Shown: positions 2,051 to 34,277 of the stretch, one piece after another
Position numbering within the stretch: position 1 is the first letter of the stretch
How the letters are laid out: the number at the start of each line of letters is the position of its first letter
IMG/VR virus record: IMGVR_UViG_2579778802_000015
From: a virus
Lineage: Duplodnaviria > Heunggongvirae > Uroviricota > Caudoviricetes
Length of the DNA: 48,953 nucleotides
Direction: 5' to 3' (one strand)
Program-made: the position numbers and the translations under genes
The notes under the pieces: generated by a model
The model's input: only the letters and a program-made list of their open reading frames with translations
Told to the model about the DNA's origin: nothing
Databases searched by the model: none

Positions 2051-5000
2051 TCAGCTAATCGTGATGCCTGCAGTGGCTTTCTTCATCACCACAACCAGCA
2101 AATCGCTGATACTTGCTGTGGGATACCAGTTATTTACCAGCCATGCTGACACCGAAAACTCCAGTGTCATGTGACCGTGACCGGCAGGCATATCAATAAC
2201 GCCACTGTAAATCAGCGTATTATCCAGCGCGGTACGGTTATAAATTTCAGCACCGTTTTTCCGCACTATCAGACGGCATGAGGAGTAAATATCAGTATGC
2301 TCTCTCTTATGCTTAGCGCCACTGAATGCCACCGCCGGAATAACAATCTGCCGGTCAAACGGCTGATCGTCATAAACCCTGACGGTAATGGTCCCTGATG
2401 GCCACCGCTCCGGTGCACGGGAGTCCCGGGGGAAAGCTTTGCCCACTGTTTTAACGAGATCGCCTTCAATCTGGTTGGCGGACAGTTTTCCCAGAACCCG
2501 ACAGTTCTCGTTAATCGTGACGTTGTTGAGCGTCCCGGAGTTCGCATTCACGTTACCGCTGATATCGGCATTTTTCGCCGTCAGCCGCCCGTCCGGTGTC
2601 AGGGAAAATGCCGGAGGATTACCGCCGCTGGCAATGGTGGGAGCCGTCAGGCGTTTCAGGAACACGTCGTTCATGAATATCTGATCGCCCTGACCAACAA
2701 ACATCGGCTTTGTGTTGCCATTCGCAGGATTAATCATCGCAATCCTGTCTGCCGCCAGCAGCACCTGACTCTGCATGCCGTCAGGGGTGTTTTCAATACC
2801 GGCACCAATACCCGCGATATAAAGGCGTCCGTCCTGCATCTGCTGCAGCTTCACAGCCCACATGCTGTTCAGGTTATTATTTGTATCAACCTGAACCTTC
2901 TGTATCTGCTGGATTGCCGCACTCTGGTCTTTCAGTTTCTTATTGACAGTCTGCGTGATTTCATTGCTGACATCCGTAATGGACGTCCTGATTTCAGCCA
3001 GGTCAGGCGCAAGCTGACCGTTATCAATCTGCGTCCACAGCTCCTGAGCCAGATGTGTTTTCCCTATCTCTCCTTTGAAAAAATCCAGGTAACCTTCCGC
3101 ATCATCGCTCGCCCGACCGACAGCCTCCACGAATGCCGATTTGCCAACAGTATTCACACTGCGGATATAAAAATAATAATCATGGCCCGGTTTGATATTG
3201 ATACTGGCAGCTATCCAGTACAGCGCCGAGCCAAGATAGCGGGCTGCGGTTTCAACCTGCCTGATATCCGCAATCCGCTTTTCCGAGAACCAGAACTCAA
3301 ACTGTACCGTCGGGTCATAAACGGCAAGATGCGGCGTGGCGGTTATCTGAAAATAGCCCGGCGTCAGCTCAATAGTGACCGGTGCCGCAGGCGCGTTAAT
3401 CCTGAAGGTGGTGGTCGCAGGTTCGCCCTGCTGGCCATAACTGTTAATCGCCCTGACCGTCAGGGTGTATTCCCCCAGCGGCAGGCCGCTGAAACGGTGC
3501 TCCGTGTCTGCGGTGATGGCGGTGGTCACCAGTCTGGCATCCGTTCCCTTACCACTGGTCAGGCGCAGACTGAAGCGCACACCCTTCACCACCCGCGGCG
3601 TGTCCCATTTAGCCTGCGCCAGATACTGGCCGTCAGCTGCACTCACCTCCACCGTCAGGTGCTGTACTGCCGGTGGGATGACGCTGTTCAGGGAACCTGA
3701 CTGCGGCTCAAAGCGGGCACCGTTATCCACGATGGCTTCTTTTTCCGGTACGTGCTGCACCGCCGTGATGGCAAAGGTGCCGTCCGTGTTTTCCCGGACG
3801 GAGACACAGCGGAACAGGCGACGGCGCAGTGACGGCAGGGAGAGTCCCCACACACCGTATGTCTCCACACCATCCGGCAGGGTGCTGACCTGTATCCGGT
3901 CAGGCGCGGGGTGTGCGGTGATGGCCACGCTCGCCGGCTTACCGCTGCCGTTAATCAGATTAACAGTGGTCGTGCCGGTCTCCGGCAGTGTCACCTCCCG
4001 GTCCAGCGTCAGGGTACGGCTGGCGGCATCGATGGACAGGACACGTCCGCCGGTCATGGTCCCGGCATAGTCGTTATCACAGATTTCAATGATGTCACCG
4101 GGTGTGTGACGCAGCCCCTGTGACCCGAGCGTGAAATCCACCGTCTGCGTTTCCAGCAGTTCGGTCTTTATCACCCACAGCCCGGCACGGTGGGCCTGAC
4201 CGCGGCTGGTACAGCCGAACGCGTCCATCTTCAGCAGGTTGCGTCCGTAGCGCAGTATGGCTTCCGGGTCTTCCACCAGTTCCGTGGAGGTCTGCCAGCC
4301 GTTCTGCGGGTCGGTGTAATTCACCTCCACCGCCGTGTGCCGGTCCTTCAGGGCACTGAAGCTGTAGCGGAAACCCACGCCGTTATCATCCACCACCACA
4401 TCGCTGCTGGTGTACGGCCACACCACATCCGACGGGCGGTCCTGAACGAACGTCAGCGTCTGACCGTTCCATACCGGCATACAGCGCATCGCAGAGCAGA
4501 AATCACTGAGAACGTCCCACGCCTTACGCTGTTGTGCCAGGTACGCATTAAAGGTCATCCGCGGCTCGGTCCCCCCGAAACCATCCGGGACCGTCTGGTC
4601 GCAGTACTGCCCGATGGCATACAGCGCCCACTTGTCCACATCCGCCGCCCCCAGACGTTTTCCCATGCCGTAGCGCGGGTGAGTCAGCATGTCCCACAGA
4701 CACCAGGCCGGGTTGTTGCTGTATGCCGGTTTCAGGCTGCCGTCCCAGATACCGCTGTACGTGCGTTTTTCCGGGTCATAGTTTGACGGCACCTGGATGA
4801 TGCGACCGCGGATATGGTAGTTCACCGTCATCTGCTGGCCGCCGAACTGCTCCGCATCCACCTGCAGCCCCACAATGGCCGTGTTCGGGTAGCACTGTTT
4901 CACATCGATGATTTCGGTGTATGACGACCAGAGCGTCTTATTCTGCAGCTGGTCCGTGGTGCTGTCCGCCGTCTCCCTGACCATCCGGATGTTAAAGGGC

Positions 5001-32194: not shown

Positions 32195-32536
32195 ATGTTT
32201 ACTCTCATGAACTACATTATCGAATACTACAGTGACGAGGTTGAAGCTGAGATCCTTTCTCTTCCTGAGACCTTACAAGCCCGGTACATTCGGTACACGG
32301 AGAAAATGCGTATTTACGGAGCTAATCTTGGTTCCCCGCATACAGAGGCATTTGGCGACGGTTTGTTTGAAATCCGCCTTAAGGGCTCGGAAGGCATAGG
32401 GCGTGTTTTTTACTGCACGCTAAAAGGAAAGCGAATCATTATGTTGCATAGCTTTGTAAAGAAAACGCAAAAAACTCCACCTGCCGAGCTTAGAAAAGCT
32501 GAAACCAGAATGAAGGAGGTTAAGCATGACTGGTAA
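32195..32536 (+). CDS. Gp49/HigB-like RelE-superfamily toxin
   Basis: MFTLMNYIIEYYSDEVEAEILSLPE...FEIRLKGSEGIGRVFYCTLKGKRIIMLHSFVKKTQKTP...; overlaps the downstream HTH gene. Confidence 0.7.
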   Translation: MFTLMNYIIEYYSDEVEAEILSLPETLQARYIRYTEKMRIYGANLGSPHTEAFGDGLFEIRLKGSEGIGRVFYCTLKGKRIIMLHSFVKKTQKTPPAELRKAETRMKEVKHDW

Positions 32537-32834
32537 ACGTACCCCACCTACCATGACACACGATGAAATGGTAGAAAAAATGTTGTCTAACCCCGCAGTA
32601 AAAGCAGAATACGACGCCATCGCCGATGAATTCGCACTACTTGATGAAATGCTGGCAGCACGAAAAGAAGCTGGCTTAACCCAGGCTGAAGTTGCCGAAC
32701 GTATGGGAACAAAAGCGACCGCGATCACCAGAATGGAAAGTAATCTCGCATCAGGTATCAGCGGCCCATCATTTGCCACACTAAAAAAATTCGCCCGCGC
32801 TACTGGAAAAAAACTCCAGATCCGCTTCGTTTAA
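32526..32834 (+). CDS. XRE-family HTH antitoxin (HigA-like)
   Basis: 102 aa; ...AARKEAGLTQAEVAERMGTKATAITRMES... HTH; 11-bp overlap with the toxin gene. Confidence 0.7.
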   Translation: MTGKRTPPTMTHDEMVEKMLSNPAVKAEYDAIADEFALLDEMLAARKEAGLTQAEVAERMGTKATAITRMESNLASGISGPSFATLKKFARATGKKLQIRFV

Positions 32835-32888
32835 CTCTCCACTACCGCGCCGTCATTCTGGCGGCGCTTTACCCCAGAGAAATATCAA

Positions 32889-33134
32889 TCACCGGATTAC
32901 CACATCCCACTCCGGCTCCTGCCATCTCAAATCCGGTGAATCATTTCTCTCAGGAATAACCATTACGTCCTTTTCCCTTCGCTCCCTTTCTATCGCCATC
33001 ACAGCCAATGCTGCAACCATGATGTATTTTTGTTCGTCGGTTCCTGTTTCATAACGACGCATGAGGGTAAACTCGGGGCGATCAGTAACCTCAATGATTT
33101 CGTTAATTTCTTTAATTTCGCGAGGAATATCCAT
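32889..33134 (-). CDS. Hypothetical acidic protein (81 aa; alternative start at 33158)
   Basis: MDIPREIKEINEIIEVTDRPEF...; SD AAGGAGA; its ATG shares a CCATGG palindrome with the divergent plus-strand gene. Confidence 0.5.
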   Translation of the reverse strand: MDIPREIKEINEIIEVTDRPEFTLMRRYETGTDEQKYIMVAALAVMAIERERREKDVMVIPERNDSPDLRWQEPEWDVVIR

Positions 33135-33807
33135 GGGTTTAGTCTCCTTTGATATCACATGCCCGCACTGTTTAAAAGAGCGAGCTGTTATTGAGGCATT
33201 TGCCGAAAAACAAATTGAAAAAACACCTTTTTTTAACGTCGCTTTTGTATGCAGAAGTTGTCATCGAGGAGGTGTTGCTATTGTTGAAATCCCATCAGAC
33301 CACTATCACGGTCCCATGGCGGAAAGCCAGAAAAAAGACCTCGATATTCTGATTTCAGGAAATAGCCAGTACCGTTTCCGCAAGATCTATCCTGTGGTCA
33401 AAAAAATTACCGCACCAGAATATACGCCCCCGGTTGCAGACCGTACTTTTGTTGAGGCAAAAGAGGATTTACAGAGGAGGCGGTACGACACAGTGGTTAT
33501 TCTTTGTCGCAGAGTCCTCGATATCTCCACGAAAAAACTGCTCGGCGATGAAGCAGGAAAAGAATCGCTGTCGCAACGTATTCAGATGATTTACAAAAAA
33601 GGCCTGATCACTGAACAGATGAAGGAATGGGCTCATATTGTACGAATTGATGCCAATAAAGCAGTTCATACAGATGAAGTTTTCACACCAATTGAGGCAA
33701 GCCAGATCCTGAGTTTTACCGAAATGTTTTTAGTCTACGCCTTCACTCTGCCTGCAATGGTGGAAGCCAGACGTGAACAAAAAAGCTCAGATTCAGCCTC
33801 TATATGA
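33133..33807 (+). CDS. Zinc-ribbon protein with C-terminal DUF4145-like domain (224 aa), candidate defence/abortive-infection gene
   Basis: MGLVSFDITCPHCLKERAV...CRSCHRGG... then ...YDTVVILCRRVLDISTKKLLG...HIVRIDANKAVHTDE...; SD GAGGAA; opposite strand to the nin operon. Confidence 0.65.
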   Translation: MGLVSFDITCPHCLKERAVIEAFAEKQIEKTPFFNVAFVCRSCHRGGVAIVEIPSDHYHGPMAESQKKDLDILISGNSQYRFRKIYPVVKKITAPEYTPPVADRTFVEAKEDLQRRRYDTVVILCRRVLDISTKKLLGDEAGKESLSQRIQMIYKKGLITEQMKEWAHIVRIDANKAVHTDEVFTPIEASQILSFTEMFLVYAFTLPAMVEARREQKSSDSASI

Positions 33808-33839
33808 ATCACTTTTCTGAACACGTAAGCCCCCGTCAT

Positions 33840-34277
33840 TCACGACGGGGAGAACATCAATCCCTCTGCACTCCCTCGCCAGAATGCCAGCACACGCTGC
33901 ATCGTTTCGCTGTTACGGCACTCGCGACAAATTGTGTTGTAGCGTCTGTCGTAGCGCCGTATTTCCCCATCTGGTAATGCCCGGATAAGGTCTGGATCAA
34001 CGACAACCGGTTTCTTCGACTTTGCCCTTGAGAGTTTTTTGCGGGCATTTTGCCAGTCCTTACGAGCCTGTTCAGACGGGAATACTCCGTAACCGGAATT
34101 GTAAACATCACCACTGGCGGCCAGCTCCATGCATAAACGACCGACAGACGCATGACTGACACCAATTTCATCCGATAACTGCCGAATCGTGCCTCGTCCG
34201 TTAAGGCGTACGAATTCCACGATCAGCCCCTTAATTTTTTCCCGCTCTTCTGGTGTAAATGCTCTTGTCATAAGCAC
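33840..34277 (-). CDS. HTH DNA-binding protein (145 aa)
   Basis: ...GTIRQLSDEIGVSHASVGRLCMELAASGDV... HTH followed by a basic region. Confidence 0.55.
   Translation of the reverse strand: MLMTRAFTPEEREKIKGLIVEFVRLNGRGTIRQLSDEIGVSHASVGRLCMELAASGDVYNSGYGVFPSEQARKDWQNARKKLSRAKSKKPVVVDPDLIRALPDGEIRRYDRRYNTICRECRNSETMQRVLAFWRGSAEGLMFSPS

Follow-up and report, generated by a model that had tools for sequence, protein, structure and literature searches.

Why should a prophage carry a gene for what is likely an RNA-cleaving defence protein antisense within its own lytic operon, and why should that gene share its start codon with a small gene on the opposite strand? The question is raised by a 48,953-nt stretch of viral DNA (IMG/VR record IMGVR_UViG_2579778802_000015), referred to here in its entirety as the window, which is a complete lambdoid prophage of Escherichia coli whose pR (early-right) and late operons run along the minus strand. 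The two genes are the open reading frame (ORF) ORF224 (33133-33807, plus strand), which encodes a 224-residue protein with a zinc-finger domain, a linker and a DUF4145/HEPN domain, resembling RAZR (ring-activated zinc-finger RNase), and ORF81 (32889-33134, minus strand; 81 codons plus stop), which encodes a small, predicted three-helix protein and is its conserved divergent partner (phrog_8371). The explanation favoured here, and judged moderately probable, is that ORF224 is an abortive-infection RNase of the prophage and that ORF81 is a partner in the lytic operon whose likeliest role is that of an inhibitor or switch against self-targeting. Its parts differ in strength. It is highly likely that ORF81 has some function in partnership with ORF224, and nearly as likely that ORF224 is a defence RNase; the narrower idea of ORF81 as an inhibitor or anti-autoimmunity factor is argued by analogy and falls somewhat short of an even chance.

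Architecture and predicted active site of ORF224

An initial annotation of the locus, made from the sequence alone, had read in ORF224 an N-terminal zinc ribbon followed by a domain of the DUF4145 type. This architecture is borne out by a Pfam match, by invariant cysteines and by a HEPN fold in a structural model. The match to DUF4145 (PF13643, HEPN clan) covers residues 118-197 and scores 36.9 bits against a gathering threshold of 23.1, and PF13643 is carried by all of the 83 close homologues of ORF224. On the plus strand, the gene encodes in succession a zinc-finger domain (residues 1-86; 33133-33390), in which CPHC (C10, C13) and CRSC (C40, C43) are followed by an extension of about 30 residues, a conserved proline-rich linker (residues 87-99; 33391-33429), whose P87, A94, P95 and P99 occupy invariant or near-invariant columns, and a HEPN (DUF4145) domain (residues 100-224; 33430-33804).

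In a family alignment of 32 homologues at 37-70% identity, Cys10, Cys13, Cys40 and Cys43 are invariant, as are R171, D173, N175 and H179. The latter four belong to a predicted catalytic motif, R171-I-D173-A-N175-K-A-V-H179 (Rx7H; 33643-33669, plus strand), which is assigned from the alignment and from its correspondence to RAZR. Conservation rises along the protein, the mean pairwise identity over 25 pairs of loci being 0.40 in the zinc-finger domain, 0.50 in the linker and 0.68 in the HEPN domain. An AlphaFold2 model of ORF224 (local confidence score, pLDDT, 88.5) has a small beta-rich N-terminal domain, with strands at residues 4-6, 20-27, 33-40, 46-52 and 81-86, and a helical C-terminal domain which, as modelled, has the all-alpha HEPN fold. 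Foldseek searches with the model retrieve the HEPN toxins 7AE8/7AE6 and 5YEP. The zinc ribbon of RPB9 is matched weakly by the family profile (E 0.23).

Relationship of ORF224 to RAZR

The defence system PD-T7-4 was reportedly discovered by Vassallo et al. in 2022. It is the same as RAZR of E. coli UMB1727, in which a Cys4 zinc-finger domain and a conserved linker precede a DUF4145 domain that is a divergent HEPN RNase (Zhang et al., Nature 2026, PMC13017515; PDB 9y9c). The substitutions R146A and H154A abolish RAZR defence, and the overproduced protein is non-toxic on its own. Activation involves assembly of a 24-mer around ring-shaped phage proteins, either an Erf-like recombinase or the portal, and the activated enzyme cuts single-stranded RNA non-specifically, specificity being set by the zinc-finger domain (PMC13017515). 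The HEPN toxins retrieved with the ORF224 model, 7AE6/7AE8 and 5YEP, also served as comparison structures in that work (PMC13017515).

The initial annotation had linked ORF224 to abortive infection from a resemblance between domains, and this link is strengthened by the occurrence of the same architecture in the experimentally characterised RAZR/PD-T7-4 (PMC13017515). Both proteins have an N-terminal Cys4 zinc ribbon that opens with CPHC (C16-P-H-C19 in RAZR-Ec), a proline-containing linker and a C-terminal DUF4145/HEPN domain; they are of similar size (224 residues in ORF224 and about 211 in RAZR), variability is greatest in the zinc-finger domain of each, and both are found on mobile elements. 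The spacing of R171 and H179, Rx7H, lies outside the canonical HEPN range of Rx4-6H and is shared by RAZR. The motif, with its central N, aligns residue for residue, R171, N175 and H179 falling on R146, N150 and H154 of RAZR in hmmsearch, BLASTP and hhalign alike. The RAZR-Ec sequence used was rebuilt from database fragments, and its numbering agrees with the AGN68-70, R146 and H154 of the paper. BLASTP aligns ORF224 to RAZR over 141 residues at 24% identity (E 3e-5), hhalign against an alignment of the RAZR family gives a probability of 86.6% (E 4.4e-6) for the HEPN domain only, and the PADLOC model for PD-T7-4 matches 17 of the 32 ORF224-family members, at best with 2.8e-7.

These comparisons suggest that ORF224 most probably works like RAZR. 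By sequence it is a remote relative, a member of a separate sister family that lies outside PD-T7-4 proper. At 50% clustering, that family counts 213 representatives at a cut-off of E<=1e-30, rising to 1430 at E<=1e-10 and to 3395 at E<=1e-3. The two families also differ in their settings: the RAZR-family genes examined sit right downstream of an integrase gene, in the same orientation and without a divergent partner, whereas ORF224 is antisense in phage operons and adjoins ORF81. RAZR is a single-gene system, whereas a partner accompanies 33 of 53 distinct relatives of ORF224.

Many RAZR-family proteins in the databases are N-terminally truncated, at 146-169 residues (e.g., P0085, P0087 and P0092). 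A full RAZR-family ORF of 212 residues (locus L155, 2869-3507) begins 132 nt further upstream, so that it overlaps the stop of the integrase gene before it and takes in the first zinc-ribbon CxxC; the zinc-finger domain is therefore under-reported in databases. A distant zinc-finger-DUF4145 relative in the P2-like Escherichia phage Cartapus (L013, 162-860; 26% identity to ORF224; PADLOC PD-T7-4 1.2e-6) has Lys in place of the catalytic Arg (CVKDDGNDGAH). Zinc-finger and HEPN domains are also combined in DS-38 (HEP2, WP_001313577.1), a validated E. coli defence protein from DefensePredictor (Science 2026, PMC13092281; bioRxiv 10.1101/2025.01.08.631726) that is reported to resemble PD-T7-4 in the HEPN part only (PMC13092281). 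Identity of ORF224 with DS-38 was considered and rejected; the two were set apart by length, DS-38 having 366 residues (a 1101-nt gene), and not by sequence alignment.

ORF81 and the shared start codon

The two genes meet in a CCATGG junction (33131-33136), in which the plus-strand ATG of ORF224 (33133-33135) and the minus-strand ATG of ORF81 (33134-33132) share two bases (33133-33134). Each gene has its Shine-Dalgarno sequence inside the other: GAGGA (33122-33126, plus strand), 6 nt upstream of the ORF224 ATG, lies within codons 3-5 of ORF81, and AGGAG (33144-33148, minus strand; CTCCT on the plus strand), 9 nt upstream of the ORF81 ATG, lies within codons 4-6 of ORF224. The coordinates, the shared ATG and the paired Shine-Dalgarno sequences given initially were thus all found in the sequence, and the Prokaryotic Genome Annotation Pipeline (PGAP) of NCBI calls both genes, overlapping by the same 2 nt, in an E. 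coli chromosome of 99.9% identity. Longer ORFs, of 248 residues from 33061 and of 89 residues from a GTG at 33158, were rejected because the homologues all begin at the shared CATG.

The CATG arrangement recurs in 33 of the 53 distinct ORF224 relatives on viral contigs, and again in Alcaligenes and Photorhabdus; judged from this recurrence, the shared start is not a product of chance. At such loci a divergent small gene of 54-93 codons lies upstream of the ORF224 relative and starts at the same CATG, and the linked pair persists where the ORF224 relatives are 42-52% identical and the ORF81 relatives 35-52% identical. The reverse search gave 61 viral loci with an ORF81 relative, 53 of which have a zinc-finger-HEPN gene directly upstream, divergent and with a 2-nt start overlap; the eight exceptions are one near-identical lineage, that of phage phiSTEC1589. 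The ORF81 family amounts to only 67 clusters among 5.8 billion database proteins, all of them unannotated. Its most distant members, in Alcaligenes and Photorhabdus, lie start-to-start with a DUF4145 gene, and do so at different prophage positions (upstream of an Erf operon and upstream of a lysis cassette). An earlier conclusion that ORF81 is not a partner, drawn from the Pantoea, Citrobacter and phiSTEC1589 contexts, was overturned by this systematic analysis of loci. As far as we found, a partner interlocked by its start codon has not been described in the literature.

Of 18 diverse loci, most (about 15) have a GGAG, GGGA or AGGA element 7-10 nt upstream of the HEPN-gene ATG, and the ORF81 residues encoded at that site vary among them. 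The Shine-Dalgarno sequence is kept although codons 3-5 of ORF81 are variable, and the constraint is therefore on the DNA and not on the protein. The Shine-Dalgarno sequence on the ORF81 side is weaker, and less conserved in other loci.

ORF81 belongs over its full length to phrog_8371 (6.8e-56), and family alignments give the core motif DRPEFTL.QRYE...QK..V.AL.G..IE..R. Its AlphaFold2 model, made with database homologues, is a three-helix bundle (residues 3-16, 20-30 and 33-57) with a disordered tail, pLDDT exceeding 90 for residues 1-50. The median net charge of the core is -1, making it neutral to weakly acidic, and neither a significant structural or family match nor a recognisable helix-turn-helix (HTH) was found. 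ORF81 always lies on the strand of the surrounding phage operon.

Relatives of ORF81 cut to 32 residues (L035, 4904-5002) and 39 residues (L036, 4883-5002) by premature stops adjoin an intact HEPN gene, which suggests occasional decay of the partner. In phiSTEC1589-Stx1c, homology breaks 4 nt before CCATGG, at a mosaic breakpoint. The HEPN slot of this type (L003, 3606-4106; L110-L117) holds a 166-residue gene on the phage-operon strand, for which no Pfam or PADLOC match was found, and its ORF81 uses a start four codons further upstream.

Genomic settings

Along the prophage the genes cI, cro, cII, O, DnaC-like P, DUF1627 and DUF977 (Ren-like) lead up to ORF81/ORF224, beyond which follow a HigB/HigA-like toxin-antitoxin pair, an Ant-type antirepressor gene, NinB, NinE, DUF1364, RusA and NinH. 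Escherichia phage PhiR5_2 (PV340546) matches the surrounding 2.3 kb at 98% identity, and the Stx phages 75/02 and POCJ13 match it at 89%. Among 5426 complete E. coli genomes, 48 contain a 971-bp core, which is of full length in 36 of these.

All of the ORF224-family contexts examined are prophages or temperate phages. The initial annotation had called ORF224 a 'moron' placed against the grain of its operon, and the antisense placement proves to be a trait of the family: when ORFs of at least 80 residues within 4 kb were counted around 53 distinct proteins in IMG/VR loci, 400 were found to oppose the gene in orientation and 75 to share its strand, opposed ORFs forming the majority for 52 of the 53. 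The position itself varies. E. coli lambdoid phages carry the family gene in the nin region, where ORF224 is antisense in the pR/nin operon, and in Pantoea, Citrobacter and Klebsiella it is found between the lysis genes and HNH or terminase genes; it is present in Burkholderia phages, and the distant relative in phage Cartapus occupies the cos-portal slot. The lower G+C content remarked upon initially is real, at 0.434 for ORF224 and 0.522 for the window, although the difference is mild, placing the gene at the 8th percentile among 675-nt windows.

A model for lysogeny and induction

For ORF224 we infer RNase activity, a role in defence, a trigger and a pattern of expression, and for ORF81 inhibition, along the following lines. 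ORF224 would be a single-gene cassette antisense in the lytic (pR/nin) operon, a placement that would allow its expression in the lysogen and would have lytic transcription run over the gene. In the lysogen the protein would be made and, to judge from RAZR, would be inert. Upon superinfection, the zinc-finger domain would act as a sensor and specificity module that binds an oligomeric phage protein, and the linker would couple this sensor to the nuclease. The HEPN domains would thereby be brought into an active arrangement in which the R171/N175/H179 site cleaves RNA; translation would stop and the superinfecting phage would be aborted.

The prophage itself encodes candidate triggers, a portal (14457-17041) and a RecT/Bet-like annealing protein (45766-46551), which could otherwise set off ORF224. 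On induction, pR transcription would pass antisense through ORF224 and into ORF81, turning the RNase off at the transcriptional level, and ORF81, if it is an inhibitor, would add a shut-off at the level of the protein. Lineages without ORF81 would need some other means of self-avoidance. Where ORF81 is kept without ORF224, as in the phiSTEC1589 type, it would still be useful as a counter-defence.

The initial annotation had suggested that ORF81 might neutralise any toxicity of ORF224. Co-occurrence of the two genes fits a partner of this kind, and it is the classical toxin-antitoxin form of the idea that appears unlikely. Unlike a type II toxin-antitoxin pair, ORF224 and ORF81 are divergent and not co-transcribed, and would belong to different transcriptional regimes. 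Because the prototype, RAZR, is non-toxic alone and transcription of the two genes uses opposite strands, protection against autoimmunity at prophage induction is, by analogy, the likely logic of the partnership.

The proposed switch is suggested by the geometry of the genes together with the precedent of Tha/Ith in the Staphylococcus aureus phages 80alpha and phiNM2, where a prophage HEPN RNase and its inhibitor Ith-1 (67 residues) are encoded on opposite strands in a 'noncontiguous operon' (Rostol et al., Nat Microbiol 2024, PMC11087260). There, lysogenic and lytic transcription render the expression of the two genes mutually exclusive, the stated purpose being to defend the lysogen without autoimmunity on induction (PMC11087260). 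The two systems have in common a prophage-encoded HEPN protein and a very small protein on opposite strands, one of them nested antisense in a phage operon. They differ in that neither ORF81 nor ORF224 matches anything annotated as Tha or Ith, there being no sequence relationship, and in their layout: in 80alpha the cI operon contains the defence gene and it is the inhibitor that is inserted antisense, whereas in the present prophage the antisense insert is the defence gene, the small gene being part of the lytic operon. Sharing of a start codon is not described for Tha/Ith, and inhibition, documented there, is for ORF81 a proposal. A different solution is found in HepS of the Salmonella prophage Gifsy-1, which evades itself through a non-triggering variant of the tail tip (Sargen et al., Nature 2026, PMC13043305; PDB 9oik); HepS has no zinc-finger domain, belongs to another HEPN family and involves no partner gene in self-evasion. 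Members of the ORF224 family without ORF81 would have to rely on something comparable.

In its most far-reaching form, the proposal is of an undescribed two-gene immune switch, in which the interlocked CATG and the antisense 5' ends would make an RNase for lysogeny and a dedicated inhibitor for the lytic cycle mutually exclusive. ORF81 would in that case represent the first protein of an anti-RAZR type, shielding the prophage from its own sensor of ring-shaped or structural phage proteins and breaking RAZR-like immunity in new hosts. So complete a switch is conceivable, and we regard it as on balance doubtful.

Weighing the explanations

Several observations weigh against the favoured explanation. 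The similarity of ORF224 to RAZR is weak and restricted to the HEPN domain and linker, and falls short of a significant full-length match to the family. A phmmer search of the PDB with the single ORF224 sequence gave no match, even at E<=10, and the family profile reached the RAZR chain 9y9c_OA only at E 0.067 (hmmsearch), in an alignment that covers the linker too (the region of P66/P74/P79 in RAZR). Of the profile searches that the initial annotation had proposed for the 224-residue protein, that of Pfam put DUF4145 above threshold, whereas the PADLOC model for PD-T7-4 was not significant (E 0.0022, 15.5 bits, model positions 64-158 of 211, or 45%). The zinc-finger domains of the two proteins are unalignable, and the roughly 30 extra residues between ribbon and linker in ORF224 are absent from RAZR-Ec; the sensing mode of ORF224 may therefore differ from that of RAZR, as has been argued for DS-38 and PD-T7-4. 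The catalytic loop is the least confident part of the AlphaFold2 model (residues 172-179, 33646-33669, pLDDT <50). As the loop includes the invariant D173, N175 and H179, it may be a flexible, assembly-dependent active site, as proposed for RAZR. A scan for consensus sigma-70 sequences upstream of ORF224 found no promoter, although the initial annotation had thought it likely that the gene has one of its own. On the side of ORF81, about one third of the ORF224 family lacks it, including a clade of 212-residue proteins encoded beside the small terminase gene and the relatives in Pantoea and Citrobacter, and ORF81 occurs without ORF224 in the phiSTEC1589-type lineage; the two are therefore not obligate partners. 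Finally, the divergence of ORF81 is correlated with that of ORF224 (r 0.5-0.7), as expected from linkage alone. Mirror-tree comparison of ORF81 with the zinc-finger or HEPN domain was accordingly set aside as uninformative.

The last of these points leads to an alternative in which ORF224 is a RAZR-like defence gene and ORF81 an ordinary gene of the lytic operon without any tie to it, CATG being the fixed boundary of a mobile module and linkage explaining the joint divergence. The correlation is what such linkage predicts, many family members lack ORF81, and several copies of ORF81 look truncated, as in L035 and L036; moreover, the junction is precisely where the phiSTEC1589-type mosaic breaks, and in that type ORF81 is retained with a different start codon. 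An unrelated gene would, however, be expected in other neighbourhoods also, and yet all lineages but one of the 67-cluster family sit at this junction. The junction is kept across insertion sites as different as the nin region, the gap between lysis and terminase genes and an early operon with Erf, and the exact 2-nt overlap is retained over 35-50% protein identity and in two proteobacterial classes. A mere neighbour of this kind is thus unlikely. The same tight conservation of the pair would be expected if ORF81 were a positive component or a regulator, either a transcription factor acting on an ORF224 promoter inside its own gene or a sensing adaptor, so that the two genes form one defence system. 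The three-helix bundle predicted for ORF81 could be a DNA-binding or an adaptor fold, and the promoter and Shine-Dalgarno sequence of each gene must fall within the coding sequence of the other. Against such a role, the core of ORF81 is neutral to weakly acidic and has no recognisable HTH, the gene is transcribed with the lytic operon and hence would be silent during lysogeny, the stage at which defence is called for, and RAZR and the solitary family members work, or exist, without it; a role of this kind appears less probable still than the absence of any tie.

It is also conceivable that ORF224 serves the life cycle of the phage itself, as a regulatory or nucleic-acid-binding protein, and has no part in defence. 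PHROGs labels its family, phrog_1305, 'DNA binding protein', and zinc ribbons often bind nucleic acids. An invariant R/N/H motif of catalytic type and a HEPN fold are hard to reconcile with this, as are the antisense, variable 'moron' position and the patchy presence (36-48 of the 5426 complete E. coli genomes), which are typical of accessory defence cargo, and the homologous RAZR is proven to act in defence. Of the explanations considered, this one is very improbable. A prophage abortive-infection RNase with a lytic-operon partner, ORF81, that may guard against self-targeting is retained as the preferred account.

Further features of the locus

A -10-like hexamer without a good -35 element, TAAACT (33068-33073, plus strand), lies antisense to the RPEFT codons of ORF81, and 16 of 17 diverse loci have TAnnnT in the corresponding place. 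It was rejected as evidence for a promoter of ORF224, since it overlaps the most conserved residues of ORF81 and, in an analysis of third codon positions, TTT is equally consistent at another Phe column. Codon bias explains the conserved position equally well, and the hexamer is a speculative lead only.

Between the antitoxin gene and the end of ORF81 there is a GC-rich hairpin (32847-32867, plus strand), GCGCCG-N9-CGGCGC followed by TTTA, which marks the left end of the conserved module and does not vary among four phages that differ in the toxin-antitoxin genes upstream. A terminator scan missed it, its T-run being short. Together with a second hairpin (33831-33850), which overlaps the end of the DUF977 gene, it brackets the ORF81/ORF224 module; the two have the common core CCGTCATTC (GCGCCGTCATTCTGGCGGCGC and CCCCGTCATTCACGACGGGG), and neither has a good T-run. 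A terminator, an RNA stabiliser and a recombination site are candidate roles.

The slot beside ORF81 or the HEPN gene holds a toxin-antitoxin pair that differs from phage to phage and is always on the strand of the HEPN gene. In the window it is a Gp49/DUF891 toxin with an HTH_3 protein (32207-32834, plus strand), in L009 a HigB-like toxin with an HTH protein (3126-3709), in PhiR12_3 a RelE-like toxin with an HTH protein (L002, 4290-4973), in phiSTEC1589 TumE with an HVO_A0114-type protein (L003, 2347-2995) and in Photorhabdus ParE with an HTH protein (L161, 1453-2138). The slot looks like a small antisense islet of accessory or defence genes.

The portal gene of the prophage is seemingly split into two minus-strand ORFs (14457-15680 and 15677-17041) that overlap by 4 nt and match residues 455-859 and 1-451 of the 859-residue portal family phrog_2271. 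The split is either a frameshift, in which case the prophage is defective, or natural. In strain G1/2, which is 99.9% identical, the annotation gives the O gene a frameshift.

Implications for temperate phages

RAZR was characterised in 2026 as a solitary gene (PMC13017515), and the ORF224 locus reveals a large sister family inside temperate phages. Current defence-finder models largely miss this family, most lineages of which carry a dedicated small partner with a fused start codon. Should ORF81 be an inhibitor, it would be a natural anti-RAZR protein, and would explain how a prophage equipped to sense conserved phage assemblies can be induced without killing itself. The 'noncontiguous operon' principle of Tha/Ith would then extend from Gram-positive to Gram-negative phages.

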